Shown one piece after another: positions 12,286-31,788 of a stretch of DNA of 42,356 bases (within the stretch, counting starts at the first letter, position 1; each line of letters begins with the position of its first letter). The notes beneath the pieces are model-generated. The model made no database searches. It was not told where the DNA came from and saw only the letters and a program-made list of their open reading frames with translations. This stretch comes from Candidatus Zambryskibacteria bacterium RIFOXYC1_FULL_39_10 (GTDB taxonomy: Bacteria > Patescibacteriota > Minisyncoccia > Phycocordibacterales > WO2-35-19), in the NCBI GenBank assembly GCA_001824275.1, contig MHWW01000013.1, forward strand, positions 1 to 42,356, in the 5' to 3' direction. Made by a program: the position numbers and the translations under genes.

Positions 12286-12323
12286 GATTTTTATATTTTA
12301 GCACTTTTAATTTTTTATAAATA

Positions 12324-12556: not shown

Positions 12557-12557
12557 T

Positions 12558-12743
12558 TTATCCTCGATTTTTTTGGTCCCCAGCCAACACAAACTCTTTA
12601 GAGGCTGGATCTAAAGAGTTTGTGTTGACATTCGACCCTTTCTTTAAGTGATCATTGTAATCGTACTGAGCGAGCAGGTCGAAAAATTCTGCTAGAGCAG
12701 TGATGTTATCTTCGTTTAGAGCATGATCGTTCTCAACGTTCAT
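12558..12743 (-). CDS. small helical protein upstream of recombinase 1 (possible directionality factor or regulator)
   Basis: Amphipathic ALAEFFDLLAQYD. Positional counterpart at 26657-26830. Confidence 0.6.
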   Translation of the reverse strand: MNVENDHALNEDNITALAEFFDLLAQYDYNDHLKKGSNVNTNSLDPASKEFVLAGDQKNRG

Positions 12744-12853
12744 GCTTTGATTTTCTTAAAATAAAAAGCCTTAGTATATTGGGCTTTTAAGGATTTTCTG
12801 TGGAAATGCCCTTAAAATAAAAGTGATTTGGTAGGGAAAAGTCCCAAAAAGTC

Positions 12854-13564: not shown

Positions 13565-13602
13565 ATACTTACATATTCTCTCAATTATGCTAAAATTTCA
13601 AT

Positions 13603-13764
13603 ACAACTGAATATAAAGCCTAGTAGCCTAAACCGGTGGTCGCCGGCATGGTGAAAAGTGAAGAAAGTCGCGAACAGCGTAAAAAACCCATCATCAGGGT
13701 TGCTGTTCGCGCCATATCGGGAAACTGGTATGTGGCCTCCGGGCCATCTGGTGGTGGGCTTTTT
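13603..13764 (+). ncRNA. conserved structured RNA motif, copy 1
   Basis: Follows TGcTAAAAT (13588-13596). Multi-stem junction ending TGGGCTTTTT. Covaries with copy 2 at 27810-27967. Confidence 0.8.
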
Positions 13765-13778
13765 GTATGTAAAAAACT

Positions 13779-14018
13779 ATGTGGAAATTATTTTGGAACA
13801 TCTTGGCGGTAGTAGTCGGTTTATATACCGGATATAGAATTTTTATTTGGTGTGGGGAACATATCCCAGCTTTTGGATATTTTCCTTTGGGTGTGATTGG
13901 CGGTTTGGCTGCATTGGGATTTGGTATTTATTTGATACATGGAGTAGAACTTTTAATTTCTTGGATTATAGGGAGATTATTTAAAATTCAAAAGGAAGAA
14001 GATTTACCTTTCAATTAA
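13779..14018 (+). CDS. small membrane protein
   Basis: Two hydrophobic segments. First gene of cargo array 1. Confidence 0.7.
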   Translation: MWKLFWNILAVVVGLYTGYRIFIWCGEHIPAFGYFPLGVIGGLAALGFGIYLIHGVELLISWIIGRLFKIQKEEDLPFN

Positions 14019-14029
14019 AACCCACTCAA

Positions 14030-15022
14030 ATGTTAAATTTTTTCAAAAACAAATTCATTAAAACATACAAACCTATTCTAGTTATTGTGATTATCTTAAT
14101 CATTTGTATTTTTGGTTTTATTGGTGTTAGAAAATACAGCGATTACAAAAATTTGCAGCAAAACACTACCCAAGAACTGATACAACAGCAACAGAAATCA
14201 TTAGAAGAAGCAATAAAAGAAATAAATGATTTAAAATCTGCAAACCAAGCAACATCCGAAAAATTGGACCAAAAAATCAACCAAATTGAAAGCAAAAGCC
14301 AAAAAACTGATTCTATAGGTTCTACCGATTTAGAACCTTATATAACCGGTGTTGTAGAAATAACCTGTAAGGATTCGTCAGGGAGCGGCTCATTGTGGAA
14401 TATTGATTCTAAAAATGTAGTCATTACAAATGATCATGTAGTAGAAACTCCCTTTTATAGCTCGTATAACAAACAAAGCTATTGTGTTGTGTTTGCGGAA
14501 AAAATAAATGGGGATTTCGATATGATTTATACAGTATTTCCGTCTTCAAAATGGAATTGGAATAATGAAACGGATATTGCAGTTATGAATCTTGTTGAAA
14601 AGTTTTATCCGGATGGCAATCCTCTTCCTAGTGAATTGGAGAAACCAGCGAATCATTTGAATTTTAAAATTTCTACACTAAAAAAATGCCCATCACAAAT
14701 AGCAGTTGGGTCTCCTGTAGTAGTGATTGGATATCCTGCCTCTGGTATGCAAGAGACATTTAATGGTATGGGGATTGATGCAGCAAGAATTGTTACGAAT
14801 GGGGTGGTTAGTGGATATGACAAGACTGTAAATCCTCCGTATGGAGGACTATTAAACCCAAATTATTATGTATCAGCAAAGATTGATAGTGGAAGTTCTG
14901 GGGGTATAGCATTATCTAGAAACGACGACAAATTGTGTGTCTTAGGTATCCCTACATGGATAAACGTCGGTAATTATGACACCCAGGGCGTGATTCAAAA
15001 TATTCATAATGTTATGAAATAA
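14030..15022 (+). CDS. membrane-anchored trypsin-like serine protease
   Basis: TM and coiled coil, with catalytic triad motifs TNDHVV, TDIAV and DSGSSGG. Confidence 0.88.
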   Translation: MLNFFKNKFIKTYKPILVIVIILIICIFGFIGVRKYSDYKNLQQNTTQELIQQQQKSLEEAIKEINDLKSANQATSEKLDQKINQIESKSQKTDSIGSTDLEPYITGVVEITCKDSSGSGSLWNIDSKNVVITNDHVVETPFYSSYNKQSYCVVFAEKINGDFDMIYTVFPSSKWNWNNETDIAVMNLVEKFYPDGNPLPSELEKPANHLNFKISTLKKCPSQIAVGSPVVVIGYPASGMQETFNGMGIDAARIVTNGVVSGYDKTVNPPYGGLLNPNYYVSAKIDSGSSGGIALSRNDDKLCVLGIPTWINVGNYDTQGVIQNIHNVMK

Positions 15023-15037
15023 AAATTTATTTTTAAG

Positions 15038-15322
15038 ATGACAAATTCATTTAAAAAAGTTGTTGCTTACATTGGCTCTGTAATAGTTTGTTTATGGCTT
15101 GCTTTAAACATTTTCATTGGCTTTGCATATCCGTCCCTAGTTGCTTTTGACGGAATAAAATTATTTTTCACAAATCCTCAAGAATTGATCAGACAAATGG
15201 TTGATCTTTTCGGAATACTTGGTCTTACTGTCATAGTTTTGATATTTCCCGGTGTTTTGATCTGGAGTTACGAAAAGTTTTCTGTTTTTTTGTTAAGAAA
15301 AAGATTATCTAAATGTAAATAA
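15038..15322 (+). CDS. small membrane protein
   Basis: Two TM helices, with array spacing. Confidence 0.7.
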   Translation: MTNSFKKVVAYIGSVIVCLWLALNIFIGFAYPSLVAFDGIKLFFTNPQELIRQMVDLFGILGLTVIVLIFPGVLIWSYEKFSVFLLRKRLSKCK

Positions 15323-15323
15323 T

Positions 15324-15494
15324 ATGCCTCATCAATTTCAATCAATAAATTGTAAAAAGTGCGGTCACGGATACTGCCCGGTATGCAAGGACAAGTGTCC
15401 GAAATGCGGAGAAGTGGATGTGGCTGACGAAAAAACGATGGAGATTAGAGAGCAGATGAAAACATTATTAAAATCAAATGGAAGAAAAAAATAA
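15324..15494 (+). CDS. 56-aa Cys-rich zinc-finger microprotein (not in ORF track)
   Basis: MPHQFQSINCKKCGHGYCPVCKDKCPKCGE... has three CxxC pairs and fills the gap between its neighbours. Confidence 0.7.
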   Translation: MPHQFQSINCKKCGHGYCPVCKDKCPKCGEVDVADEKTMEIREQMKTLLKSNGRKK

Positions 15495-16290
15495 AATATC
15501 AAAAAAAATTATTCTGTATTTTATCGGGATCGGCCTTGTCTCTTTTTTACTGGGGACCCTAGTCATGATTATACCCGAAGAAACGGGTCCGGAAGATAAC
15601 TTCTGTAATGTTATGGTCCTCTCATTAAACGGAGTACTCGCAACCTATCTACCCCCTAAATCTGAAGACGATTCGGAGATGTTCTACTCCTCCGAAAATG
15701 TTTTGGCTGCCATAGAAAAAGCGGAAAATGATCCCGATGTCAAAGGTCTCATTCTTTCAATCAATAGCCCGGGCGGCGATATTGTGGCCGGGGAAGAAAT
15801 AGCCAATGCCCTCAAGGCCATGAAGAAGCCAAATGTCGCTGTAATACGCAATATGGGAGCTTCTGCAGCCTTCCTTGCTTCCTCCGGAGCCGACAGAGTA
15901 TATGCTTCCAAACTGTCTGACACTGTTGGAATCGGGGTCACAATGTCTTACACCGATCAGACAGAGAAAAACAGGAAAGAGGGCTTAACTTTTAACCAAC
16001 TCTCAACCGGTAAATTCAAAGATGCCGGAGATCCGGATAAACCACTTACCGAAGAAGAAAAATTAATCTTCATGATTGATCTAGAAAAAGCTCACAAAAT
16101 TTTCGTTGAAGAAATAGCTCAAAACAGAAATCTCAAAATTGAAGATGTGTCTAAAATATCTACCGGCAGAACATATCTCGGGGAAGAGGCTCTCAATTTT
16201 GGCCTTATTGATGAGATTGGAAGTATAGATACTGCCGTTAAATACATTGAAAGTTTAACTGGAGAAAAAGCCGAAACTTGTTGGTATTAA
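15478..16290 (+). CDS. sppA: signal peptide peptidase SppA-like S49 peptidase
   Basis: INSPGG, MGASAAF, GIGV, GKFKDAG, GLIDEIG. Confidence 0.9.
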   Translation: MEEKNKISKKIILYFIGIGLVSFLLGTLVMIIPEETGPEDNFCNVMVLSLNGVLATYLPPKSEDDSEMFYSSENVLAAIEKAENDPDVKGLILSINSPGGDIVAGEEIANALKAMKKPNVAVIRNMGASAAFLASSGADRVYASKLSDTVGIGVTMSYTDQTEKNRKEGLTFNQLSTGKFKDAGDPDKPLTEEEKLIFMIDLEKAHKIFVEEIAQNRNLKIEDVSKISTGRTYLGEEALNFGLIDEIGSIDTAVKYIESLTGEKAETCWY

Positions 16291-16324
16291 AAACTAATTT
16301 AAAAAATATGGGATTAGCGATAAG
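16288..16324 (+). repeat. ~36-nt direct repeat, copy A (duplicated gene-start region)
   Basis: TAAAAACTAATTTAAAAAATATGGGATTAGCGATAAG, compared with 17111-17146. Confidence 0.7.
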
Positions 16325-16338
16325 TAAAAATAAATTAT

Positions 16339-17106
16339 ATGAAAAAATGTCCATTTTGCAAAAATGAAATTAATGTGGACGTAGCGCAATGCCCAATCTG
16401 TAAAATGATACTTATTGAAAAAATACCTCATATTAATCCTACTTCAGAACGAGTCTACACTTCATCATCACCAAAAGAACCAAAAAAGCAAACGCATACT
16501 TCTTATTACACTCCCCCTCAAAAATCTTCTTCTAAAGAGCGGTTTAAAATTCCAAATGGTAGTGGTTGGATAATTTCAATCGTTGGATCAATTGCACTCA
16601 CTTTAATTTTGAATGGTAATTATGGTTCTTCGAATCCGCTCCCCGCGCCATTATCTGATCCGACTATCGTAGATACTAATCTATCTTTAACACCAATTCC
16701 TCATACTTCATATTATTCACTTCCAAATGGCACAGTTCTCTTTTCCTCATCACTTAATGGAGAGGGCATTTTAAGCATTTCGAATGGGACCAAATCCGAC
16801 GCAGTCGTAAAACTCATTACAACAGGCGGTAGCAAAGTTTATTCTGTTTATGTGCGTGCCAATAGCAGCTATTCGATTGAAAATATAAACGACGGTATCT
16901 ATAGATTGCTTTTTTCTTTTGGTTCAAATTGGGACCCGAATCAAAATAAGTTTTTGGTTAATCCAAGGGCGGAAGCTTTTGATGATACTTTCGATTTTGA
17001 GACTTCAGATACCAAATCTACAGGTTTTACTATTACTTTAAATCCGGTAATTGACGGAAAAGCCACAACGAGCCCACTCGATTCAAATGTATTTGATAAA
17101 TACTAA
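16339..17106 (+). CDS. zinc-ribbon + TM + extracellular beta-rich domain protein
   Basis: CPFC...CPIC, S/P/T-rich linker, one TM, C-terminal DGIYRLLFSFGSNWD. Confidence 0.8.
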   Translation: MKKCPFCKNEINVDVAQCPICKMILIEKIPHINPTSERVYTSSSPKEPKKQTHTSYYTPPQKSSSKERFKIPNGSGWIISIVGSIALTLILNGNYGSSNPLPAPLSDPTIVDTNLSLTPIPHTSYYSLPNGTVLFSSSLNGEGILSISNGTKSDAVVKLITTGGSKVYSVYVRANSSYSIENINDGIYRLLFSFGSNWDPNQNKFLVNPRAEAFDDTFDFETSDTKSTGFTITLNPVIDGKATTSPLDSNVFDKY

Positions 17107-17110
17107 ACTT

Positions 17111-17146
17111 TAAAAATTAATTTAAAAACATGGGATCAGCGATAAG
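17111..17146 (+). repeat. ~36-nt direct repeat, copy B
   Basis: TAAAAATTAATTTAAAAACATGGGATCAGCGATAAG. Confidence 0.7.
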
Positions 17147-17288
17147 AGTAGCTATACAACTTTTAGAAGAATTTTGGAAAATGCCTTTCGAAGGAAAACT
17201 CCTGTTCATTATTCCAACAGTAATTGTAGTCAGTTTGATTATTTGGAAAGAGGAAAGAAATAAAAATAAAATATGGAATAAAAAATAA
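17130..17288 (+). CDS. 52-aa single-TM microprotein (not in ORF track)
   Basis: MGSAIRVAIQLLEEFWKMPFEGKLLFIIPTVIVVSLIIWKEERNK... Confidence 0.55.
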   Translation: MGSAIRVAIQLLEEFWKMPFEGKLLFIIPTVIVVSLIIWKEERNKNKIWNKK

Positions 17289-17322
17289 AATTTTTCATAA
17301 ATTCATGTTTTTGTTATTTGTT

Positions 17323-17395
17323 GCCCTCGTAGCTCAATGGACAGAGCAAGACGCTTCTATCGTCAAGGTTGGAGGTTCGACCCCTTCCGAGGGCA
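17323..17395 (+). tRNA. tRNA-Arg(UCU), island-borne
   Basis: GCCCTCG/CGAGGGC acceptor, GCTC/GAGC D-arm, loop CT-TCT-AT, T-arm GGAGG-TTCGACC-CCTTC. A27:A43 mismatch. Confidence 0.88.
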
Positions 17396-17485
17396 CAAGA
17401 TTAAGTGAATATGGAACCTTTGTATTGAGAGGTGTATTATGGGACCATATCGCCGATCAACTTTTGATTTTTAATATCAAAAAAT

Positions 17486-18310
17486 ATGTTTGTTTCAAAG
17501 AAAATAATTTATATATCAGCTGGGGCCATTGTTTTATTGTTCATATCTTCCATCATCTCATTTTTGGGGAGCGGAAATTCAAATTTGCCACTGGAGCAGA
17601 TAACAACTACAGAAGAAGTGGTGGAAATAAATCCACTGCCTCAGTCCGGTGATTTGTATAAAGTGGTCAAAGTAGTAGATGGCGACACGGTCACGATAAA
17701 CATGAACGGCAAATCACAAACCATTCGTTTGATCGGTTTAAACACTCCGGAGACTGTGGATCCGAGAAAACCGGTAGAGTGTTTTGGTAAAGAAGCCTCG
17801 GATAAAGCTAAAGAAATTTTAACAGGGAAAGAAGTGAGAATTGAGAAAGATCCGGGTCAAGGGGATTATGATAAATACAATCGACTTTTGGCTTACGTAT
17901 TTTTGGAAGATGGGACTAATTTCAATAAATACATGATCGAGCAGGGTTTGGGCTATGAGTATACATATAATCTTCCTTACAAATATCAAAAAGAGTTTAA
18001 AACGGCCCAAGAACAGGCTAAATCACAGAAAAGAGGACTATGGGCAGATAATGCCTGCAAAATCGAACAGTCAACCAAAACAACCACTACAACCTCTGCT
18101 CCTGCACCAATACAGCAATTCCAAACCACCACCGAAAGCAAGCCTGCCACAAATGGTAATTACATTTGTTCATACAACGCCTATAACTGCTCCAATTTCT
18201 CAACTCAAAACGAAGCACAGGCCGCTTTTGAGGCCTGTGGAGGAGTGAATAACGATATTCATGGACTGGATCGAGACAAGGATGGGGTGGTTTGCGAAAG
18301 TCTACCATAG
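17486..18310 (+). CDS. thermonuclease (SNase) with C-terminal Excalibur-like Ca-binding domain
   Basis: VVDGDT, IRLIGLNTPE, DKYNRLLAYV, RGLW. C-terminus NCSNF...LDRDKDGVVCE. Confidence 0.93.
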   Translation: MFVSKKIIYISAGAIVLLFISSIISFLGSGNSNLPLEQITTTEEVVEINPLPQSGDLYKVVKVVDGDTVTINMNGKSQTIRLIGLNTPETVDPRKPVECFGKEASDKAKEILTGKEVRIEKDPGQGDYDKYNRLLAYVFLEDGTNFNKYMIEQGLGYEYTYNLPYKYQKEFKTAQEQAKSQKRGLWADNACKIEQSTKTTTTTSAPAPIQQFQTTTESKPATNGNYICSYNAYNCSNFSTQNEAQAAFEACGGVNNDIHGLDRDKDGVVCESLP

Positions 18311-18336
18311 CCGAAAAATATAATTTTTTATAAAAA

Positions 18337-19629
18337 ATGACTCAAGGATATTTATTTAAAATTCCGCCCGATAGACGCTCAATTTTTAACGATCATATCG
18401 AAGGTGAATTCGCCCAACCTGTTCCAAGTTTTTCTCACAGTCGTGGGTCAGCTCTTATAGTATTTATCTCTTTAGAGGAAGGGCTGATTACTCATTTAGC
18501 CTCTGGGCGGGCCGGTAATCACGCGGGGACTGATTTGCGTCGGTTAAATTTGGAACAAATTCATATTTTAGAAAACCCATTAAATTTTAGTGATATTTTA
18601 GAACATTCTCCTTCAAATGTTCGACGATATATTAGTAACGCATTTGAACATGGAGGTATTTTACCGCCAGGGAGTTTTAACGGAATGGTAAATGCAATCT
18701 ATGAATTAAATCCCGATGCCGGTTCTTTACTTGCCCGATACAGTACACAACGTCAAGAAACAATAGCGAATCTATCATCAAATGTCTCTAAATCACTTGC
18801 GGCTCAAAAAGAAGCACTGAACACTGCATTGAGTATTGCTGGTATTGATAGGAAGCCTTTACTTGAGTGGACACCTAACCATGTAGAACAATCATCCTCG
18901 TTTCTTACTGGCTTGCCCAATGCATATTTAAGAGAAGATCAGATGATATTAAATGATTTCAATTTCATTCCTGGTTTTGACCGAATTAGAGGCTCTGTAA
19001 CTGGTACTGTACAATTTGAAAACAGGGATACAAAATTAAATGTAATTTTAGCTAATAGACTTCCTCTGGAAGAACAAACCGGAGCGGATTTAATATATTA
19101 TAATGCTACTTATCAATCATTTGTCTTGGTGCAATATAAAGCTATGGAGGATGGGACGGATGATTATGGCCCATCGTTTCGGCTTCCTAATTGGCAATTA
19201 ACCGAAGAATTAACTCGCGCGGATGCTTTAATGGATCAAATTAGATCAGTGCCGCCGGTATCAAATCGGAATGGGTATCGTTTAGCTGAAATTCCATTCT
19301 TTTTGAAATTGTGTCCAAGAATTGTGTTAAAACCAGATGATGTTGGATTGACGCCGGGCATGTATTTTTCTCGAGATCACTGGAAGTTTCTTGAGACGGA
19401 CAGCGATTTAGTTGGAGCTCGTGGTGGGCGAAAAATAACTTATAACAATATAGGGAGACATATAAATAATACGGAATTTATTAGTCTTGTACAAAATGCT
19501 TGGATTGGAACTACTCCGGCCCAAAGTCAAATGTTAGAACCAATTATTTCAGAAATTCTTACGAATGGAAAATCTGTTATTATCGCCTGTAAATCAAATA
19601 AAGAAGCCTTGGATATTGAAGAATTTTAA
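18337..19629 (+). CDS. hypothetical protein, putative PD-(D/E)xK-like nuclease
   Basis: LEEQTGADLIYY...FVLVQYK, a D...QxK pattern. Confidence 0.6.
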   Translation: MTQGYLFKIPPDRRSIFNDHIEGEFAQPVPSFSHSRGSALIVFISLEEGLITHLASGRAGNHAGTDLRRLNLEQIHILENPLNFSDILEHSPSNVRRYISNAFEHGGILPPGSFNGMVNAIYELNPDAGSLLARYSTQRQETIANLSSNVSKSLAAQKEALNTALSIAGIDRKPLLEWTPNHVEQSSSFLTGLPNAYLREDQMILNDFNFIPGFDRIRGSVTGTVQFENRDTKLNVILANRLPLEEQTGADLIYYNATYQSFVLVQYKAMEDGTDDYGPSFRLPNWQLTEELTRADALMDQIRSVPPVSNRNGYRLAEIPFFLKLCPRIVLKPDDVGLTPGMYFSRDHWKFLETDSDLVGARGGRKITYNNIGRHINNTEFISLVQNAWIGTTPAQSQMLEPIISEILTNGKSVIIACKSNKEALDIEEF

Positions 19630-19657
19630 TTTGGGTATACTATTGCAATTTACTACC

Positions 19658-20134
19658 ATGGAAGAGGGGAAATTTGAACAGAAAAAGAGGGCGGATGTGG
19701 TTATAGGTATAGCCATAGCTGCTATTGCTGGCTTTATTTTAAACTTGTTAGCAAATTTGTATTATGATCTTTTTATAATCGAAACTACTGTCTGGGCCAA
19801 GGTTAACCACTTTCAAGTTATTTGTGTTTCGTTAGCTCTTTTGGGGCTAATTGGATTTTTGGAATTTTTTATTTTTGATTATAAAAATAACTTTGAAGTA
19901 AACAAGAGTTTTTTAAAAAGATATTTAAATTATTTCTTTTATAATTTTACTCCTGGCAAAATTATTAGAGTCATTACTGGTTTATACGTGTCAGCTATTC
20001 TTGTTGGGTTCACAATTATAATTTACATTTTTATGGCCAAATCTGCCGGATATTATATTGCAACCGGAGTTTTTCTGGCCGCCTTTTTAAAAATTTATCT
20101 GGAAGAAAGAGAGAAGAAAAAGCTACTCAACTAA
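19658..20134 (+). CDS. four-TM membrane protein
   Basis: Hydrophobic helices. ATG 19658 preferred because it avoids overlap with the upstream gene. Confidence 0.75.
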   Translation: MEEGKFEQKKRADVVIGIAIAAIAGFILNLLANLYYDLFIIETTVWAKVNHFQVICVSLALLGLIGFLEFFIFDYKNNFEVNKSFLKRYLNYFFYNFTPGKIIRVITGLYVSAILVGFTIIIYIFMAKSAGYYIATGVFLAAFLKIYLEEREKKKLLN

Positions 20135-20150
20135 TAAAGATTTAGATAAT

Positions 20151-21101
20151 ATGTATGCATATGGTCTAAAATGCGACCATTTGCGACAGTCTATTGATCA
20201 AAAAGGGCTCCACGGATTTTATCAACACCGCCGCCAGAGAATAGCTTGCTCTCCGAGAGACTTTTTTTATTTAAACATCAAAATACGGAACCGTCTGATT
20301 TTTGTTAAAATATATAGTATGGCTATAAACGATTGCGTAACCGCCTCTATGTTCATGTGTCAGCCGGAATGGATCAAGCATAATTTATCCCGGAGATTTC
20401 ATTTTTGCTTGTGTAAAATGCTTGATGGCGGTTTAAGCAGCGGAACCACTATGATTACTGGTTTACGAGCGGTCCATGGTTGGGGGATGGTCCCTGAAGC
20501 TTCATTTTTTCCATCCAACAGAAAGTTAAGCGAAGAGGAATATTCCAACTGGAGAAAAATACCACCTATCATGTGGGAATATTCCAAAAAGATAGATATT
20601 TTAGGTAACGAGCAGCTACTGAAAACACCAAATGTGCTCTACAGAAAAGAATATTTAAATAATAACAAGAAGTTTGAAGTGTACATGACTTGTTTTTCTG
20701 CACTCGGATTTTTGCATACGAATTTAAATGTCTGTACTTCTAAATTTGAAACTGCCGGTTGGCTCAATGTCATGATAAATCACAATGACCATACGGCGTA
20801 TCCGGATGATCTGTTTGTTAAACCGGAATTCAGAAGGATTGGAATTGGCAATTTCCTGCTCAAGGAATTGGAATTTTTGATCTTAAGCGGTACTCTAGAG
20901 GGGTATGTAATGGAACTGCAGACGGGGAAAAAGGCTGAGATTAAAAACGTAAACTTCAGGATTCCTTCAGTCGATATTTATACGAAAAATCGCAAGGAAG
21001 CGGCGCTTAAGCTATTTAGAAAAAACGGCTACAAACTCGTTATTGATGACTCTAAGAAAATTGTTGACTCAAAATTATTAGCAATTAAGGAAATAAAATG
21101 A
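20151..21101 (+). CDS. protein with C-terminal GNAT acetyltransferase domain and papain-like N-terminal segment
   Basis: DLFVKPEFRRIGIGNFLL...AALKLFRKNGY (GNAT). NDCVTAS...LSRRF..CKMLDG..GT...WGMVPE. True start uncertain. Confidence 0.65.
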   Translation: MYAYGLKCDHLRQSIDQKGLHGFYQHRRQRIACSPRDFFYLNIKIRNRLIFVKIYSMAINDCVTASMFMCQPEWIKHNLSRRFHFCLCKMLDGGLSSGTTMITGLRAVHGWGMVPEASFFPSNRKLSEEEYSNWRKIPPIMWEYSKKIDILGNEQLLKTPNVLYRKEYLNNNKKFEVYMTCFSALGFLHTNLNVCTSKFETAGWLNVMINHNDHTAYPDDLFVKPEFRRIGIGNFLLKELEFLILSGTLEGYVMELQTGKKAEIKNVNFRIPSVDIYTKNRKEAALKLFRKNGYKLVIDDSKKIVDSKLLAIKEIK

Positions 21102-21613
21102 AAGAAGAAAACAATGTTATTTTTGAATGTCCGGACCAGAATCTGACAGCGATTTTAAAAGAATTATTTCCAGATGTTTCCATTAATCCAGACCCTCCGA
21201 AAGAACAATCTGGCAGCAACGATGTAGATGACTACAATCCGGAACCTCTTACGGGTGGGGCCGGTTTTGATCCGAATTTTTCTTCCTTCATTCTTACCGT
21301 GATTTATACTGCCGGTTACGATGGCATAAAATTTACTCTAAAGAAAATATTCGATGCAATAAAAAACATTGACCCCAAGAAAACGGATTTTCTCCTGGTT
21401 AAATATCCGAATATTAACGACTGCAAGATCTCCTTCATATTGCCAGCACAAATGTCTTCCGAAAAACTAGATGATCTGAAAGAAAGCATGGATTCTCTTT
21501 ATAATAATTTGGGCAATTTCATCTCTTCAAATAATGGCTGTATTCTAAATTCAAAATTTGAATACTCGTACAATGATGAGGAGGATAAGTGGGAGTTTAA
21601 ATCAATGATCTAA
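21098..21613 (+). CDS. hypothetical protein
   Basis: ATGA and TAATG overlaps couple it to both neighbours. Confidence 0.75.
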   Translation: MKEENNVIFECPDQNLTAILKELFPDVSINPDPPKEQSGSNDVDDYNPEPLTGGAGFDPNFSSFILTVIYTAGYDGIKFTLKKIFDAIKNIDPKKTDFLLVKYPNINDCKISFILPAQMSSEKLDDLKESMDSLYNNLGNFISSNNGCILNSKFEYSYNDEEDKWEFKSMI

Positions 21614-22908
21614 TGAACACTCCTCTTGATGCTGCTTATAATCGTTTAGATGAGGCCCATAGGGCTTGGCACAGCGCTTTATCAGGATATCATCGAATAG
21701 ATGATTTTCGAGCCGGTATAAACGGGGCCATACAGGCACTTAGAAATTTAACTTTTGTTTTGCAAAAGCAAAAAGATAACCTTGCTAACTTTGATGTCTG
21801 GTATTCTGGGTGGAGACAAAAAATGCAAGATAATCAGCTCCTTAAAGAGCTTGTTGAAGCTCGAAATATAATTGTTAAACAAGACGATCTAAAATTACAT
21901 AGCGTCGCTAAAGCCAGAACGAGAGGGTGGGTTGACTTCGAGAGGGTTGCTTTTACTTTCGATCCGTTTGCTGACAGCTTAGAAGTCGCTACGGGTTTTT
22001 ATAATACGTATGCAAAATATTTGCCCGTACCGGAAGAACTTAAAAAGAGACTGATCTTTGAATTTGAAAGGAAGTGGGTGTACGAAAAATTGCCAGATTA
22101 TGAGTTGCTTGATGCGATCGCTCAATCCTATCATTTTTTTCACGAAATGCTCCTAGACGCATCCGATAAATTTTCAATTCATTCAAAACGAAATCTCTCT
22201 TCTGGTAATTATTGTCTCGGAGAATTAAACGATAAAAATAAACTGAAATGCATGATGGTCACAGATCAAAATCGCCGTCTTGTTTTTGGATTTAGCGATG
22301 GAAATATGCTTGGAATGAAAACCGGAAAGATTGAACGGGATGAAGTTGACTTGGAAAAGGCAAAGGAAAGATACGGTGATGGATGGAAATCTGGAGAAAT
22401 TGTTTCTTTGTTAGAAGGTATTTTCCCGGAAAAGCATCCTTTTAATCAGATGAGGTTGTTTGCTCAGTCAGGATTGAATTGCCTCAAGAAAGACAAGTTT
22501 CTTGTTCCGGTGTCTTTCATATTCGTTGAAAATGAGAAAACACCACCTATTGTTATAAATCACTTCTTTCAAAACCAAGAACAAAAAATGGTGGCTATGG
22601 ATAGCGTGGCGGCAAAAATTATCGAAAATAATGGGAAATTTGTTCTCTTGATGGTTGAATCATGGATATATCCTTTTAACAAAGAGAAACCATTGGTCCC
22701 GCCCGAGTTTAGTTCAAAAAACGCAAAGGAGGTGGTTCAAATTTTTTGCTTATCTGAAAAAACGGTAAAAGTAATTAATGTTCCTTTTCATAAAAATATG
22801 TTTGGACAAGTAACTCTATCTAAGCCGTCCGTAGAAAATTTTTCAACCGAAGATCATAATTATTTTGTTATTTCGCCATTGACGAAAGCTCTTAAAGAAA
22901 ATAAATAA
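21613..22908 (+). CDS. hypothetical protein with HEPN-like N-terminal helical domain
   Basis: RLDEA...FRAGINGAIQALRNLTFVLQK...W...ARNIIVK. The RxxxxH His is replaced by K. Confidence 0.6.
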   Translation: MNTPLDAAYNRLDEAHRAWHSALSGYHRIDDFRAGINGAIQALRNLTFVLQKQKDNLANFDVWYSGWRQKMQDNQLLKELVEARNIIVKQDDLKLHSVAKARTRGWVDFERVAFTFDPFADSLEVATGFYNTYAKYLPVPEELKKRLIFEFERKWVYEKLPDYELLDAIAQSYHFFHEMLLDASDKFSIHSKRNLSSGNYCLGELNDKNKLKCMMVTDQNRRLVFGFSDGNMLGMKTGKIERDEVDLEKAKERYGDGWKSGEIVSLLEGIFPEKHPFNQMRLFAQSGLNCLKKDKFLVPVSFIFVENEKTPPIVINHFFQNQEQKMVAMDSVAAKIIENNGKFVLLMVESWIYPFNKEKPLVPPEFSSKNAKEVVQIFCLSEKTVKVINVPFHKNMFGQVTLSKPSVENFSTEDHNYFVISPLTKALKENK

Positions 22909-22944
22909 ACACAAAAATGTTTACTTTTGTTTACCTTTTTTGGA

Positions 22945-23337
22945 TTATCCTCTGTTATTAAGAAATTTCAAAACTCTATATCCGGATTGTTTTGCACATC
23001 TTGGGCTGTACCCAGATTGTATAGCCGCCTTTGTTGCATTGAACCTGTTTGTAAGAAGGTGCTTTATAAAAGTTAATCGCCTCACTGTGGGTCCATTAAG
23101 ATAACAGCCCCGCAGGTTATTTTCGACTAAGTTACCTGCTATGATGCCCGGCAAATTTTTGTATAAATAGGGTTTATAAAAAATATAATCCATAATGAAT
23201 TTAAACTCATCCATATTAAATTTTGGGCTTGGTTTTGTTTTTTCATACTTTTCCGTTTTGTAGATCTCAGTAAGCACATCTATCACATCTTTTATGGTTA
23301 ACAGTAGCTCCTCTTTTTTCTTTTCCTTTTTGGCCAT
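22945..23337 (-). CDS. terminase small subunit-like HTH protein 1
   Basis: FIKHLL..FNATKAAIQSGYSPRCAKQSGYRVL matches the TerS HTH pattern, here at the C-terminus. Confidence 0.7.
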   Translation of the reverse strand: MAKKEKKKEELLLTIKDVIDVLTEIYKTEKYEKTKPSPKFNMDEFKFIMDYIFYKPYLYKNLPGIIAGNLVENNLRGCYLNGPTVRRLTFIKHLLTNRFNATKAAIQSGYSPRCAKQSGYRVLKFLNNRG

Positions 23338-23343
23338 ATTCCT

Positions 23344-25152
23344 TTAATTTTTAAGTGTCGGATCAGCAAGCAGTTCTTTTAATTCCGCCAAAGCAATTGA
23401 AGGAAAGGGGTATTCATTTACCCAATCTATCGTTCTAAAATCGTCAGCCAGTGCGATGAGGGCAGGAAATTTACCTTCAAATTCTCCACTTTCTCCTTTA
23501 TTTACAACATATTCTCTTGGTTCGAACCCCACAATTTCGGACCTTGCAACTTGGAGTCCATTTATGTAAGCAGAAATTGATTTAGTGTTGTTAATCCTAA
23601 CTTTTCCACGATTAAACAGAAGGTTCGAACCAAACTTAACTAAAGCATCCCTCTTTTTTTCAAACGGTCCATTTTCAAGTAGCTCCGACATTTCGATAGA
23701 TAAATTTACAATTTTTTTCGCTTCACTAACCCAATCTATATTTTCAATCTCGGCCAGCTTTTTATTTCCTTGAATCGGGCTAATTTGCCTCTTGGCGAGA
23801 CTAAACTCCTCGTCGTTGATCAAACCTCTGTCATGCATATCCAAGAGCCTTAGGAGCTTCTTTTGGCCGTTTTCGGAGGATTGCTCGTTTGAACGAGTTA
23901 CCGCCTTATTTTCTTGAAGCTCTTTGTCTTTGATTTCGTCAATATGTCTTAATGCCCAGTCTGCTAACCCTTTGGAAATCTGGAAGTTTTGGACCAAGTA
24001 GTCAATCACTTCGCCATTAAGCTTCTTCTCTTCGATACTCACAGCCTTAATTCCGGGGCTTTTTCTTTCTTTGACGCTGGCGTAGAAAACATAGTTTTTA
24101 AATTTCGGCCTGTTCATATTTTGGATCTTGATACCACACTTTGGGCACTGGTCCTGGTTGATGTAAGAAAACTTATGCTTGCACGCCGTGCATCTTATTT
24201 GAAATTTTGGGTCTCCGACTACAGCACAATTGTTAACCTCATCCCAAATAAGACCACCATACAGCAGGTTTCTTTTTTGTGATCGCGGCCTGCCTTTTTT
24301 ACCAAGCATGTCTTGAATTTGCCAATACTGATCCTCGGTTATCATTCTTTTCAGTTTTTTATCCAAATCTTGCCTTACTACCTCACCATCTTCTTTGGCA
24401 TAATAAAAGAAGCCGGCATATACGGGATTTCTCAAAAGAAAATACAGATATGAAAGAGAGATTAATTTACCACCCTCTCTTTTCCTTGGGGGCGTAGTCA
24501 ATTTTAGTTCGTCCCGCGCTATAAAATAAAGTTTTCTCACAGAATACGTCCCCTCAAGAAATTTTTCAAAAATCATTTTAACGAGAGGCCACCTAACAGG
24601 ATCCTCATACCAGTCTCTGTTGCCTTTCTCCCTGGTCATATCATTAAAATACCCTATATGAGCCAAACCGTTCGGTAGCCCTTTAAGGTATCTTGTTCTT
24701 AAGCCAGTCTTTACGTGCTCGCTCTTATCGTCCGAGTCCTTCTTTGAAAAAATAAGCTCTAAAGCGAGAAATGCTTTATCTGTTGCTGTATTGTAGTAAA
24801 CTTTAGAAGGAGTTCTAACCTCTACCAATTTTTTAAGATCCATAAAATAGATAATCATCCCAGCATCAACAGGATTTCTGGATAGGCGATTGGGGAAAAG
24901 GACGAGCAATCCGTTTGCCTCTCCGGCACTAATTCTCTGGATCATTTCGTTAAATTTCGGTCGGCCCGGAGTATGGGCACTCTGCGACTCGTAAATAATG
25001 TCAACAATTTCCAGTCCGTTTTTCTCGGCAAACTCCCCGAGTTCTCGGATTTGAGTTTCGATGGACTGGACCTGTCTATCCTCGGCTTCGCTCGATTTAC
25101 GGCAATATATGAAATACCTTAATTTTCTAATGACCGGCATTAAATTTTTCAT
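23344..25152 (-). CDS. large serine recombinase 2
   Basis: IYCRKSSEAEDRQ, GRPKF, NRLSRN, NPVYAG, zinc insert CTAC...CPKC, GSNL, FEP, DDFRT. Confidence 0.95.
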   Translation of the reverse strand: MKNLMPVIRKLRYFIYCRKSSEAEDRQVQSIETQIRELGEFAEKNGLEIVDIIYESQSAHTPGRPKFNEMIQRISAGEANGLLVLFPNRLSRNPVDAGMIIYFMDLKKLVEVRTPSKVYYNTATDKAFLALELIFSKKDSDDKSEHVKTGLRTRYLKGLPNGLAHIGYFNDMTREKGNRDWYEDPVRWPLVKMIFEKFLEGTYSVRKLYFIARDELKLTTPPRKREGGKLISLSYLYFLLRNPVYAGFFYYAKEDGEVVRQDLDKKLKRMITEDQYWQIQDMLGKKGRPRSQKRNLLYGGLIWDEVNNCAVVGDPKFQIRCTACKHKFSYINQDQCPKCGIKIQNMNRPKFKNYVFYASVKERKSPGIKAVSIEEKKLNGEVIDYLVQNFQISKGLADWALRHIDEIKDKELQENKAVTRSNEQSSENGQKKLLRLLDMHDRGLINDEEFSLAKRQISPIQGNKKLAEIENIDWVSEAKKIVNLSIEMSELLENGPFEKKRDALVKFGSNLLFNRGKVRINNTKSISAYINGLQVARSEIVGFEPREYVVNKGESGEFEGKFPALIALADDFRTIDWVNEYPFPSIALAELKELLADPTLKN

Positions 25153-25183
25153 GACTTTGTAAGTTAATCTTATAAACGGAAAA

Positions 25184-25273
25184 GGGGTAACAATAGGAAC
25201 TTTAATCGCCAGACTAAAGCATTGTTACCCCGCCTCTATATACAAAATTATTGCGTTTTAACTTTAGTCTGGC
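25184..25273 (-). promoter_or_regulatory. H-type pseudoknot or two-state switch in the recombinase 2 leader
   Basis: Perfect 12-bp GCCAGACTAAAG/CTTTAGTCTGGC and 11-bp GGGGTAACAAT/ATTGTTACCCC stems interleaved ABA'B'. Confidence 0.7.
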
Positions 25274-25275
25274 TT

Positions 25276-25872
25276 TCATATTATATTACGATTTTCCTTA
25301 ACATTCCACCTAATTTCTTTCTCCCATTTGACCCTGTCCAGATCTTCTGACAGATTATTGTATCTCAACAACTTCTTTGTTTCGCGGCCCTTCCACTTTA
25401 AGCTTCTTGGCATGTGCTTTTCAATCTTTTTCATCCTCTTTTCTATAATTATTTTTCTGATGTCTGGATGCCATCTCAATTTCTTGGTTAATAACTGAGA
25501 TATGTATTTTAGACTATGGCAGTGCCTGCACAGGAAACGCCCCTCGAAGAAATAGATGGACACTACACGGCGGAAACAGCCCGGACATATAAACCAGTAT
25601 CTGAAACCGCCAAAGTTGCAGGAAATTCTCTGCAGGTTTATTTTACAATCATAATCTATGTAAGAACTATTATAAGATCTTCTATCGTGTATATATTCAA
25701 GCTTTATATATGGGTATCTATAGTCAAGATGTATCTCGTAATAAATATCCCCGTCTACAATAAGCAAGTTGTCCCAACATAGAGTGCCCGTCTTGTATCC
25801 ATTTCTAAAATTCTCCAACATCATTCGGGTATGGATATTTTTTGATAATTCAATTATTCGTGTGGTTTTCAT
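25276..25872 (-). CDS. Cys-rich zinc-binding protein of mobile-element type
   Basis: GGFRYWFICPGC.RR...Y...FLCRHCH.L.Y.SQ. Confidence 0.8.
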   Translation of the reverse strand: MKTTRIIELSKNIHTRMMLENFRNGYKTGTLCWDNLLIVDGDIYYEIHLDYRYPYIKLEYIHDRRSYNSSYIDYDCKINLQRISCNFGGFRYWFICPGCFRRVVSIYFFEGRFLCRHCHSLKYISQLLTKKLRWHPDIRKIIIEKRMKKIEKHMPRSLKWKGRETKKLLRYNNLSEDLDRVKWEKEIRWNVKENRNII

Positions 25873-25916
25873 ATCGTCTCGTCAACCGAACTCATTAAGA
25901 GTTGGGTTAACAAAAT

Positions 25917-26099
25917 TTATTGCTCTTCTAAGCTTTCTTTAGGTTTAAAATAGTCTGTAAATATCTCATCAGTAAGTTTCGACATAGTCTTACCTTTATC
26001 TGTAGATTTCCATTTCAACAACTTATGGTTGTCTGTGCTTATTCTTATTAAACGCGTTTCTCTTTTATATTTCTCTTTTTGTTCTTTTATTGTTGGCAT
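25917..26099 (-). CDS. ribbon-helix-helix-like small DNA-binding protein
   Basis: TRLIRIS.DNHKLLK......TMSKLTDEIF strand-helix-helix pattern. Confidence 0.65.
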   Translation of the reverse strand: MPTIKEQKEKYKRETRLIRISTDNHKLLKWKSTDKGKTMSKLTDEIFTDYFKPKESLEEQ

Positions 26100-26100
26100 T

Positions 26101-26343
26101 TTATTTTCTTGAATAATTTTTATTAATTATACTAAGCGGATGTTCTTCGCATCTACGCGGTGCTTCTAATGCTCTCTTTATCATTTTAAACCACACATTA
26201 AACATGGCTTCCATATCTAAGTGCTTATTTTTAAGTATTTCCAATTCGATTTTGTTTAACTCTCTACCATATTTACACGTTGTTAGTTGTCGTATTAATT
26301 CCTCGTAGATTTTAAATGCATACACAGTTTTATTTTCAAACAT
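26101..26343 (-). CDS. hypothetical protein
   Basis: ORF with a 1-nt gap to the RHH gene. Confidence 0.6.
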   Translation of the reverse strand: MFENKTVYAFKIYEELIRQLTTCKYGRELNKIELEILKNKHLDMEAMFNVWFKMIKRALEAPRRCEEHPLSIINKNYSRK

Positions 26344-26656
26344 AATTTATTTTGTTAATTTATAATTTTGTTTACTTAACCCCCGGCCCGGATTTTTCGA
26401 CCCCCTCCCTCCTCCGCTTCCCTCTGATGATAAAGTCTTTCCTTGTTCCTTGCAGACAGCCCTAGTTTAGTTTGATTAGTTTCTTTCCCGTCATATTTGG
26501 GAGCAGACGGAACTAATTAAATTACCAGAGCGCGCCCTCTCTCATCATCGTCGGTCGCGTTGTCGGTTGGCCTGCAACCCTTCGGATTTCTCCGACCACG
26601 TGCAGATGTGGCCCGGGCCAAATGACCCTAAATTATCCACTTAACAAATGGACAAT

Positions 26657-26830
26657 TTAGGAACTTTTGGCTAAGCTGACTTTATATTTGATAATTACTG
26701 CCATGATCCCGAGCAACCTGGCCCCAAAGTCATTCAAATCATCTTCGCTAAAAAGCGCGAGACCCCTTTCTCCGATGTCTTTCCGGAGAATTTCTCTAAG
26801 CTCTTCTTTTGCTTTTTGGCTGAGTTCCAT
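26657..26830 (-). CDS. 57-aa helical microprotein (not in ORF track)
   Basis: MELSQKAKEELREILRKDIGERGLALFSEDDLNDFGARLLGIMAVIIKYKVSLAKSS. Same slot as 12558-12743. Confidence 0.65.
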   Translation of the reverse strand: MELSQKAKEELREILRKDIGERGLALFSEDDLNDFGARLLGIMAVIIKYKVSLAKSS

Positions 26831-26943
26831 TCATTCATTTTAAATTGCCCCTTGCAGTAAAACCCGACTTACTTTTTACAGATGAAAAGAAAAAAACCGC
26901 TTTTTATAAAGCAGTTTTTATTCATATTGTGTTATCCACAAAC

Positions 26944-27792
26944 TTACTGGAACTTACTCAAATTCTTTTCATAAGTGCCATTACCGATACGTTTAATTTT
27001 AATTAGAAATTTATACTCTCCATTTTCCAGTTTAATAACGTCTTTTAACAAAAATCCCGCTCTTGCATACATAGGATTGTCCTTGTTTAAATTCCAATAC
27101 TTATGTGCTTGATTTCCATAATCATCTACAGCAAGTCTGTGTGGAGACTTAGAAATATCATAGAGCAATCTGCCACTTTTATTTATTTTACCGCTTAGGC
27201 CCTTAAAGGGGGCCGTTAGAGGGGGCTTTATGGAGTAGTCATCATTTACCAGATAAATAAATTTATCACCTCGATCTTTAGTGTATTCAACTACTGTTAT
27301 GAATTTTATTTCTTTAGTTACTAGTTTAAATTTGGAAGGATGTTTCCCAACTTTTTTTCTGACTTCTTGCAGAATATCAAGTTTTTTATAAGTCTCTTCC
27401 CTTATATTTTTGACCCATTGTTGGCCTTCTTCCTCTGACACTAGCAAATCTTCTTCAAGGTTTGTTACTGGAACTGAATCGGTTCTAGAGAATTTTTCAA
27501 ACTCGTCTAGCAGATATTTTTTATGTATCTCTAATAATCTTCTTGCTGTGCTTTTCCATTTCAAATACATTCTCCTGAAATCTTGGTGGAAATATGGCTT
27601 ATTGGACTTATATCGATCTAATATACTTTCTTCCGTGTATGCAGTAATTTCTTGACCGGTGGAAATAAGCTCATAAAGTTTATTTTGGGTATCTTTGATA
27701 GAATAATCCTCTAAAAAATGGCTCAAATCAAGTTTAAAATGAACTGGACCTTTATTAGTCACCATTTTATATAGTTTATCTTTTCCTCCCAT
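26944..27792 (-). CDS. hypothetical protein, positional counterpart of 12854-13564 (putative regulator)
   Basis: Divergent from RNA motif 2. Helical N-terminus with Y.KW...A like its counterpart. Start may be 27765. Confidence 0.65.
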   Translation of the reverse strand: MGGKDKLYKMVTNKGPVHFKLDLSHFLEDYSIKDTQNKLYELISTGQEITAYTEESILDRYKSNKPYFHQDFRRMYLKWKSTARRLLEIHKKYLLDEFEKFSRTDSVPVTNLEEDLLVSEEEGQQWVKNIREETYKKLDILQEVRKKVGKHPSKFKLVTKEIKFITVVEYTKDRGDKFIYLVNDDYSIKPPLTAPFKGLSGKINKSGRLLYDISKSPHRLAVDDYGNQAHKYWNLNKDNPMYARAGFLLKDVIKLENGEYKFLIKIKRIGNGTYEKNLSKFQ

Positions 27793-27809
27793 AATGTTAA
27801 TATGTAAAC

Positions 27810-27967
27810 ATAATTGAATAGAGTTTGAAAGGACCTAACCTCATTGCTTCGGCAGTGAGCACGGTCCAAAGTCGAGTAAAGCGTAAAAAGGCCCAACGGG
27901 CTCGCTTTACTCGCCATATCGGGAAACCGGTATGAGAGGCTTCGGTCTCTACCCGTTTGGGCTTTTT
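27810..27967 (+). ncRNA. conserved structured RNA motif, copy 2
   Basis: Follows TGtTAATAT (27795-27803). Same stem order as copy 1 with compensatory changes, and UUCG and GAAA tetraloops. Confidence 0.8.
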
Positions 27968-27999
27968 GCGCATAAGACAAAAAGTCCACCAACAAAGAT

Positions 28000-28482
28000 A
28001 TGTTTGGCTGGACAAAAAACAATACAACAACATCTCAGTCGGATAAAAAGGAAGAAAAAACTTCTTTCTTCTCTTGGCGTATTAGTGGTCCAGAGTTAAA
28101 AAGACAAATTGAAAATTATCACACTTTTAAAATCACCGAGTCATATCGTGGCATATCAACAATAATAATTATTGCAATCTTTGGTTTGGTATCTCTCCTA
28201 AGTCTTTTTAGTATTGGTGTTGAACCTTCAGAAAAAGTAATCAGCATATTTTTTAATGCGGTGGTTATGCTACCAGTAGCATTCTTTGTGTATAAAGGTC
28301 ATCGCTGGGCAATAGTAGTTATGGTGGCGTTAATTACTTACGGTGTTGGTTCCTATCTTTTAGAAAGTGGCAAGATATCGGTTCTTGCTATTTTCATTTG
28401 GCTACTTCTTATCCCGCGTTTTTGGAAAGCGTTAAAGATTGAGAACGAAAGACGGAAAGTTAAAGCTCCGTCAACATTTTAA
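28000..28482 (+). CDS. four-TM membrane protein
   Basis: Hydrophobic helices. First gene of cargo array 2. Confidence 0.8.
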   Translation: MFGWTKNNTTTSQSDKKEEKTSFFSWRISGPELKRQIENYHTFKITESYRGISTIIIIAIFGLVSLLSLFSIGVEPSEKVISIFFNAVVMLPVAFFVYKGHRWAIVVMVALITYGVGSYLLESGKISVLAIFIWLLLIPRFWKALKIENERRKVKAPSTF

Positions 28483-28500
28483 TAATAGTTAAACGAGTAT

Positions 28501-29340: not shown

Positions 29341-29349
29341 TACTAAACT

Positions 29350-29640: not shown

Positions 29641-29659
29641 ATTTTATACATTTTAAAAT

Positions 29660-30136: not shown

Positions 30137-30141
30137 ATAAT

Positions 30142-30618: not shown

Positions 30619-30622
30619 TGTT

Positions 30623-31736: not shown

Positions 31737-31788
31737 TTTTATTAGTAGCGATTTTACTGGGCTTAGACCCAAATATAGAAAAGTATAT

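Follow-up and report, generated by a model that had tools for sequence, protein, structure and literature searches.

The window, meaning the whole stretch of DNA analysed (42,356 nucleotides (nt), contig MHWW01000013.1 of Candidatus Zambryskibacteria bacterium RIFOXYC1_FULL_39_10), carries two copies of a structured non-coding element, one in each of two gene modules. An earlier reading made from the letters alone (the sequence-only reading) had described them as an RNA motif of a family that it did not recognise. Both are members of LOOT RNA, Rfam family RF03000. In the layout that this reading had drawn, and that we find, each copy faces a minus-strand gene and precedes co-oriented open reading frames (ORFs). 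The parts of the two copies, including a helix formed with the 3' tail (the tail helix, described below), are as follows.

13568-13596, + strand: promoter of copy 1, with -35-like CTTACA, a 17-nt spacer and the extended -10 TGcTAAAAT (TGCTAAAAT, 13588-13596), from a consensus scan and the sequence
13603-13613, + strand: conserved 5' motif ACAACTGAATA and putative RNA 5' end of copy 1, from the sequence
13625-13746, + strand: LOOT core of copy 1, with a receptor-like P1, S1, an apical hairpin, P3 with a GAAA loop, and P4
13669-13679/13701-13711, + strand: stem S1 of copy 1, 11 bp
13679-13699, + strand: tail-helix 5' strand of copy 1, comprising the top of S1, the TAAAAAA 'bulge' and the apical 5' strand with its loop (alignment columns 142-172)
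13713-13732 and 13733-13746, + strand: P3 and P4 of copy 1, from the RF03000 match
13747-13766, + strand: 3' tail of copy 1, TCTGGTGGTGGGCTTTTTGT, the tail-helix 3' strand, terminator-like and beyond the Rfam model
13779-14018, + strand: first ORF after copy 1, 79 amino acids, hydrophobic; its ATG lies 13 nt past the tail, with GTAAAAAAC before it
27795-27803, + strand: extended -10 of copy 2, TGtTAATAT (TGTTAATAT), from the sequence; unlisted by the consensus scan, with a poor -35
27810-27820, + strand: conserved 5' motif ATAATTGAATA and putative RNA 5' end of copy 2, from the sequence
27832-27950, + strand: LOOT core of copy 2, RF03000 model positions 1-121
27873-27883/27903-27913, 27915-27934 and 27935-27950, + strand: S1, P3 (GAAA at 27923-27926) and P4 of copy 2
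27883-27899, + strand: tail-helix 5' strand of copy 2, GTAAAAAGGCCCAACGG, from the minimum free energy (MFE) structure of the 163-nt RNA and from family covariation
27952-27969, + strand: 3' tail of copy 2, CCCGTTTGGGCTTTTTGC, the tail-helix 3' strand
27978-27987, + strand: CAAAAAGTCC, a partial downstream repeat of the tail-helix 5' strand that can pair with GGGCTTTTTG, 12 nt before the ATG at 28000
28000-28482, + strand: first ORF after copy 2, 160 amino acids, membrane-like, without a family match

When the whole window was searched with cmscan against Rfam 15, five matches reached the gathering thresholds, namely two LOOT RNAs, two group I introns and one tRNA. Copy 2 matches RF03000 at 27832-27950 with 81.4 bits (E 5.8e-14) and copy 1 at 13625-13746 with 58.4 bits (E 1.4e-8), the gathering cut-off of the family being 46.4 bits. 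Both matches span model positions 1-121 of 121 and are not truncated. Since both copies score above the cut-off over the full model, the motif was already catalogued, and it is close to certain that the two elements belong to RF03000. They are thus new members of LOOT and not a new family, and what we add is a taxonomic home, a place at the head of island cargo and a structural switch model. The sequence-only reading had allowed that a strong Rfam hit would remove the novelty of the motif, and the two scores do so; full-length RF03000 now stands in place of its unrecognised family. The copies align with 79% mean column identity across ~190 nt and have fold z-scores of -5.8 and -4.7. Read directly from the sequence, both stretches lie where that reading had placed them, and their cmscan bits and fold z-scores are far beyond chance. 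Its claim that they are the sole conserved non-coding link between the modules agrees with repeat family D5 being the only direct-repeat family that joins both.

In Rfam, LOOT derives from the Weinberg/Breaker ZWD alignments and has the type 'Gene; sRNA' (small RNA). The Figure 1 legend of the Rfam 14 paper calls it a "metagenomic-based RNA" (PMC7779021), and it is listed in the table of R-scape-improved families of the Rfam 15 paper (PMC11701678). A literature search on LOOT RNA and RF03000 returned only the Rfam papers and the CaCoFold paper, where the family serves as a covariation test case, and no functional statement on LOOT was found in the literature searched. Nor did that literature yield a paper on integrative elements with serine recombinases in Patescibacteria. 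LOOT is absent from the main text of PMC5737381, the discovery paper, and the original description is presumably in its supplement. Features beyond the 121-position Rfam model, all described below, are the promoter with its 5' motif, the tail helix, the repeat at the start codon and the placement on Patescibacteria islands; some of them may already be noted in that description.

To characterise the family, we analysed 67 usable LOOT matches from a sample of relatives, each with up to 6 kb on either side (less at contig ends); one truncated sub-threshold match at a contig end was excluded. In a MAFFT alignment of these loci, 81.4% of the cells of the RF03000 consensus helices are paired, as compared to 62.2% after shuffling, and helix covariation is 0.509 as compared to 0.194, a value matched by 0 of 500 shuffles. 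Changes on both sides occur in 36 of the 39 consensus pairs of the core, and S1 covaries with 10 of its 11 pairs altered on both sides. The sequence-only reading described the 11-bp stem correctly, with three compensated position differences between the copies plus one GU->GC change, and the order of its elements holds, namely hairpin, AAAGT, 11-bp stem, TAAAAA, apical hairpin, C, CATATCGG-GAAA-CYGGTATG, tetraloop hairpin and TGGGCTTTTT. Two of its details have to be revised. The TAAAAA that it took to be unpaired is one strand of a covarying helix with the U-tract. Its closing stem, drawn between the 5' leader and the tail and also called P1, appears in the MFE structure of copy 1 only and lacks family support; as a family feature, the leader-tail stem was rejected, with cognate pairs at -7.23 and non-cognate pairs at -7.26 kcal/mol and the cognate partner ranked best in 0/66.

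The putative starts at 13603 and 27810 are the seventh nt after the extended -10 in both copies, exactly as had been proposed. This arrangement recurs in the family. The motif RYAAYTNAAT is found 10-33 nt before the core in 50/67 loci, and 49 of these 50 have TANNNT 3-9 nt upstream of the motif, 34 with the TG extension. The 5' motif is largely confined to the order, as it occurs in 6/40 loci elsewhere in the phylum. Pairing of the 5' motif with the leader after the tail was considered and rejected (observed -1.84, shuffled -2.31; 40 loci). Many LOOT promoters (L088, L049, L051, L065) have a covarying palindrome over the extended -10, at about -10 to -30 from the 5' motif, such as GATAGCA-N5-8-TGCTATC, ATACCA...TGGTAT or ATACAA...TTGTAT; none is obvious in the window copies. 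To judge from its sequence, this palindrome looks like the operator of a dimeric regulator.

Past the final hairpin of the Rfam model come ~20 nt (for example CCCGTGGTGGGCTTTTTGT) that are complementary to the upper part of S1, to the 'TAAAAA bulge' and to the apical hairpin's 5' strand and loop. The duplex between the core middle and its own tail has an energy of -29.5 kcal/mol, as compared to -19.2 kcal/mol with the tails of other loci, and the own tail ranks in the top four in 45/67 loci. With tighter segments, these values become -21.1 and -11.3, the own tail being best in 35/66 and in the top four in 58/66. In the MAFFT alignment, which was built from sequence only, the 19 tail-helix pairs are 84.6% paired, as compared to 71.8% after shuffling, and their covariation of 0.414 (0.183 shuffled) is matched by 0/500 shuffles, with slid controls at or below 0.150. 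The compensatory series include CG 26/AU 20/GC 16, CG 47/UA 19, AU 39/GC 21 and CG 47/AU 13, and where the bulge reads TACTGA the 'U-tract' reads CTTAGTG. Two positions are frequently U-G pairs (UG 62/67 and UG 47), which fixes the strand of the helix. The result was replicated on 40 further matches from 28 other genomes of the phylum, which had not been used in forming the idea of this helix; the own tail gave -27.3 as compared to -18.0, and ranked in the top four in 32/40. At least four U follow within 8 nt of the GC-rich part of the tail in 63/67 loci. A terminator scan listed for copy 1 only a 5-bp local hairpin (13744-13757) followed by GCTTTTTGTA, and nothing for copy 2; the long-range stem encloses ~70 nt. 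A tail hairpin with a downstream partner copy, of which there are clear examples including copy 2, was too weak to be a family trait (cognate -13.7, non-cognate -12.0).

In the predicted folds, the tail helix and S1 exclude each other. The S1 5' strand abuts the tail-helix 5' strand with no linker (alignment columns 141/142), and column 142 pairs with column 264 in 59/67 loci and with its S1 partner in 35/67. When each RNA was folded from its putative start to its tail, 41 loci had S1 and 26 had the tail helix in the MFE structure, and none of the 67 had both. Folds constrained to S1 or to the tail helix differ by -3.6 +/- 3.9 kcal/mol, on totals of ~-57. For copy 1 the predicted fold is S1. 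For copy 2, the 163-nt RNA is predicted to form the tail helix in place of S1, and the 211-nt transcript to form S1 together with a hairpin between the tail and the sequence downstream; this hairpin is the alternative pairing of the copy-2 U-tract with CAAAAAGTCC that had been pointed out from the letters. Because there is no linker on one side and there are few linker nt on the other, a 10-bp and a 19-bp helix would exclude each other, implying that S1 and the tail helix cannot both be complete. As judged from the alignment, both folds are kept by compensatory change.

P1 and P3 flank S1. The P1 internal loop, CCUAA(A/C)C opposite G(C/U)AUGG, and the P3 GAAA loop are present in essentially all 67 loci, and GAAA and UUCG/GCAA tetraloops cap the LOOT hairpins. 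The canonical 11-nt GAAA receptor is given as CCUAAG/UAUGG in a passage of 10.1101/2024.03.11.584472. By analogy, a P1-P3 tertiary clamp around S1 is likely.

A further feature outside the Rfam model is found at the next gene. In 28/67 loci, the S1 3' strand pairs with the leader of this gene at -14 kcal/mol or below, the non-cognate mean being -7.5. This leader site repeats the S1 5' strand in direct orientation, with 24 distinct sequences over the 28 loci, and ends 0-5 nt before the ATG in 23 of them. Among the replicate loci, the repeat occurs in ~10/40, as compared to 3.6% of non-cognate pairs. The copy on contig C20 of the source genome has it.

LOOT is distributed widely yet patchily in Patescibacteria. 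The source genome (744,429 bases in 25 contigs, 98% complete, the window being contig C13) has six copies. In the sample of relatives, 47/151 genomes, this one included, have LOOT, with 1-6 matches each; within that sample it occurs in 6/16 other genomes of the genus and in 18/38 of the family. Of 151 genomes drawn evenly across the phylum, 30 have it, and the control genomes were negative (0/14) in the relatives scan and the phylum scan alike. The S1 sequences differ among the copies of the source genome. Two copies on its contig C17, at 27207-27320 (+) and 17549-17661 (-), have the same S1, apical hairpin, P3, P4 and tail, and diverge in the first hairpin, the promoter and the downstream gene; their sequences suggest a recent duplication or a recombination inside the RNA. 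A blastn search of copy 2 against phage records gave no match. A pattern search of IMG/VR returned four contigs, three of them with LOOT above the cut-off; these three carry a recombinase, a methylase, GmrSD and a KAP NTPase, genes that are recombinase- and defence-like rather than clearly viral.

LOOT stands close before a gene. An open ATG frame begins 14-53 nt past the tail in 54/67 loci, copy 1 being outside this count because the script picked its longest ORF, and an ATG frame lies 20-115 nt after the core in 38/40 replicate loci. Consensus scans found no promoter-like site between tail and ATG in either window copy. The genes that follow are highly varied and include signal-peptide proteins with an ASWWNP-like motif, small membrane proteins, DNA methylases, secreted SNase-type nucleases and parts of diversity-generating retroelements (DGRs; reverse transcriptase and bAvd). 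The 808 neighbouring ORFs fall into 588 clusters, and only short runs of genes follow LOOT in its own orientation (0-2 genes in 43/67 loci). An RVT_1 reverse transcriptase with a bAvd-like four-helix protein, a DGR signature, lies within a few kb of LOOT in 9/67 loci, among them the source-genome contig C20 (L005; 243-4046).

A large serine recombinase gene is located within 6 kb of LOOT in 33/67 loci, 16 loci having less than 3 kb on one side. Of the 29 recombinase genes upstream of LOOT, 28 run against it, and of the 11 downstream, 9 run in its direction. Each window LOOT likewise comes after a recombinase module, with the following genes.

10630-12285, - strand: large serine recombinase of module 1, with Resolvase, Recombinase and Zn_ribbon_recom domains
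22945-23337: small helix-turn-helix gene beside the module 2 recombinase
23344-25152, - strand: large serine recombinase of module 2, 25% identical to that of module 1

The genes facing the two copies had been called regulator-like from the letters, a label that Pfam and PHROG searches did not bear out, as neither gave a match. The 236-residue protein has a weak winged-helix structural lead (TM 0.36), an atlas search gave no structural lead for the 282-residue protein, and the two are unrelated to each other. The cargo of module 1 comprises a trypsin-like protease, an S49/ClpP-type peptidase, an SNase nuclease, a GNAT enzyme and a tRNA-Arg gene. This tRNA-Arg(TCT) gene (17323-17396, +) lies inside the cargo array, and a little upstream of it is the S49/ClpP-type peptidase (15478-16290), whose top PHROG match is a phage head maturation protease. 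Judged by these sequences, the tRNA-Arg gene and the peptidase hint at a phage-derived past.

Other features surround the modules. The two group I introns (10296-10596 and 40969-41203) each lie within a tRNA-like gene (10272-10643 and 40943-41250, +), split as TCCGTGGTAGCTCAG...CCCACGGAGCA and TCCTCGGTAGCTCAG...CCCGAGGAGC, with acceptor stems that differ by compensating changes; ARAGORN called neither gene. These paralogous intron-bearing genes flank an accessory region of ~30 kb in which both LOOT modules lie. After module 2 and before the second of these tRNA genes comes a defence-like block (31789-40252, -) of DUF4268, a HerA/DUF87 ATPase, an N6 DNA methylase and a ResIII/HSDR helicase-nuclease. 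The YceG/MltG-like gene at 41283-42290 (+) is a second, divergent paralogue, the genus-wide orthologue being on contig C22 (35% identity). Close copies (78-79%) are found only in genome G007, twice, on the contig with its two LOOT copies, and one of them is ~1.4 kb upstream of a LOOT. Between core genes, GC-rich palindromes are repeated in pairs (1111-1150/7629-7668, ACCCCTCCCTTAATTTAAGGGAGGGG..., and 90-115/8347-8372, AAGTGNCAAGGTTGAACCTTGACACT), which may be terminators or a small repeat family. Genus synteny gave no island borders, since Dus and the YceG-like gene are on separate contigs in relatives and the YceG-like gene of the window is an accessory paralogue. Logan contigs of four DNA runs over 12000-31999 were short, with only short-sided joints and loose ends at the 3' part of LOOT; these joints are consistent with other LOOT copies in the same metagenomes, and tell nothing about island borders.

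We favour the view that LOOT is a cis-acting two-state leader, an attenuator or translation gate, a model that we consider to have an even chance of being right. Each copy would be a unit of ~165 nt with its own promoter and a co-oriented gene immediately after it. Fold A would be the Rfam structure, with S1 and the apical hairpin held between P1, with its GAAA-receptor-like loop, and P3, with its invariant GAAA. Fold B would be a helix of ~19 bp, in which the S1 top, the 'TAAAAA bulge' and the apical 5' strand pair with the 3' tail, GC-rich and then U-rich. During transcription, fold A would form first, perhaps clamped by docking of P3 on P1, and the polymerase would read through into the cargo. 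Invasion by the tail would convert the RNA to fold B, which resembles an intrinsic terminator, and switch the operon off. In the subtype with the start-codon repeat, fold B would have a second effect, since the S1 3' strand, once released, could cover the site where translation begins. Candidate inputs that may tip the balance are Mg2+, a ligand, or a protein of the host or the island that acts on the putative tetraloop-receptor clamp. The attenuator that the sequence-only reading had guessed at agrees with the data and is strengthened somewhat by a terminator-like tail helix that competes with S1. The analysis establishes the family identity, the promoter-like sequences, the two helices with their exclusion in silico, the spacing to the next gene, the start-codon repeat and the genomic context. 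In this model, transcription, termination at the tail, action in cis, the direction of the switch and its signal are what we infer from the sequences and predicted folds.

Several points weigh against such a leader. None of the 19 sequencing runs listed for this DNA is an RNA run; because of this, start, end, termination and read-through are all deduced, and the leader is unproven. The folding energies are nearest-neighbour values without tertiary terms or pseudoknots, and the non-coexistence of the two helices rests on a steric argument and not on a three-dimensional model. The terminator stem is long-range, and enclosing ~70 nt is unusual for an intrinsic terminator. A few loci with an interrupted U-tract (CTTAGTG) have a canonical hairpin-plus-U terminator right after the tail, which fits a discrete RNA as well as a leader, and Rfam classes LOOT as a stand-alone sRNA. 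The lack of a common function among the downstream genes leaves no obvious candidate for the signal. The start-codon repeat is absent in both window copies, where pairing is at background level (-4.3 and -8.1 kcal/mol), so that only the terminator arm of the model applies to them.

The classification as sRNA raises the possibility that LOOT is a stand-alone trans-acting or protein-binding RNA, transcribed from its own promoter and ended at the tail, in which the tail helix is the terminator and protects the 3' end, and the neighbouring gene is expressed by occasional read-through or independently. Besides the Rfam type, this view is favoured by the conserved promoter and U-rich end of most loci, by the separate canonical terminators right after the tail in some (G029, G088, G047), by the compact fold with its tetraloop-receptor-like pair and by the presence of up to six copies per genome, whose S1 sequences differ within the source genome as specificity variants would. 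However, the co-oriented frame begins so soon after the tail, without an intervening promoter-like site in the window copies, that the spacing is too tight for an independent gene. A plain terminator would also leave the competition with a near-isoenergetic covarying helix unexplained, as well as the repeat of the S1 5' strand at the start codon, and we therefore regard a stand-alone sRNA as rather unlikely. The start-codon repeat would find a place if LOOT were an antisense RNA made from its target's own transcript, like c4 or CI, in which the S1 3' strand pairs at the start of the next gene, the S1 5' strand masks it and each island has its own 'immunity'. According to a passage of PMC8198154, c4 shares an operon with icd and ant, and its RNA blocks the downstream part of that operon. 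The order of site, antisite and start-codon site in 28/67 loci and in ~10/40 replicate loci agrees with this, as do the differences in S1 between copies of one genome and the recombinases and phage-like genes of the islands. The c4/CI analogy of the sequence-only reading thus holds for the complementary start-codon site in those 28 loci and fails for both window copies, which, like 39/67 loci in all, lack the downstream site. Given in addition that the window has no match to the Rfam C4 family at gathering score and that the downstream genes are a mixed set and not antirepressors, we find this explanation improbable, and weaker still for the window copies.

A metabolite- or ion-sensing riboswitch, with an aptamer of P1, S1 and P3 and the tail helix as its platform, would be a special case of the cis-acting model. 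A conserved core with a putative tertiary contact, joined to a competing terminator-like helix of similar energy, is indeed an aptamer/platform arrangement, and LOOT is in every case followed by a gene in its own orientation. The genes that a riboswitch class controls form a coherent set, by which the class is recognised, whereas the genes next to LOOT range incoherently over signal-peptide and small membrane proteins, methylases, nucleases and DGR parts, and its patchy placement on recombinase islands is unlike that of a housekeeping sensor. Because of this diversity, the metabolite riboswitch that had also been guessed at is unlikely, and for sensing riboswitches of either kind we see quite a slim chance. 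It is hardly credible that the repeats act as DNA, as operators or as serine-recombinase sites. The recombinase genes within 6 kb in about half of the loci (33/67) and the covarying palindrome over the -10 of many promoters would suit DNA sites, but the frequent, strand-specific G-U pairs would be A-C mismatches on the other strand, tetraloops cap the hairpins, and six compensated helices fit an RNA covariance model.

If the cis-acting two-state leader is correct, its reach may be broader. Tentatively, and with rather less than even confidence, we propose a 'double-lock' leader class on serine-recombinase islands across Patescibacteria, in which a clamped stem (ON) is set against a long-range terminator helix (OFF), one subtype having in addition an anti-start-codon strand that the OFF fold sets free. 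Such a leader would let each island gate its cargo (defence, secreted and membrane proteins, DGRs) by one cellular or island-encoded signal. Patescibacteria have tiny genomes and few known regulators, and a reusable island RNA switch, if real, would be a handle on the control of acquired genes. Our analysis assigns LOOT to organisms that can be identified, Paceibacteria-like Patescibacteria, in which a genome of 0.74 Mb can have as many as six copies, and ties it to the heads of accessory gene arrays, often near large serine recombinase genes. With a second, competing covarying helix and a start-codon mimic, the 'unknown function' of LOOT becomes a testable two-state model.

Compared with the rest of RF03000, the window copies share all core helices with the family and show no differences in the core. 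In sequence, the P1 loop resembles the 11-nt GAAA tetraloop receptor of group I/II introns and RNase P, with a GAAA loop available in P3; where the receptor has its G-U pair, LOOT has A/C or C/U, covarying over the 67 loci, which is the one departure from the canonical motif. Like P1/P7 c4 and P4 CI, LOOT is a short structured RNA heading an operon on a mobile element, and in 28/67 loci it shares with P1/P7 c4 a segment that is complementary to two copies of one site, the first upstream of it and the second where translation of the next gene begins; the layout of c4 was reportedly described by Citron and Schuster in 1990 as a1/b1-a'/b'-a2/b2. It differs from c4 and CI in matching no C4 model at gathering score, in targets that are not antirepressors and in window copies without the downstream site. 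With attenuating leaders and riboswitch platforms it has in common two exclusive helices of near-equal energy, one of them U-rich at its end and upstream of a co-oriented gene, whereas its terminator-like stem is long-range over two hairpins and neither a ligand nor a common function is evident. Processive antitermination RNAs, such as HK022 put and EAR, are promoter-proximal structured RNAs on mobile or accessory operons. LOOT is like them in being promoter-proximal and structured, and differs by its short gene runs and its own terminator-like end.

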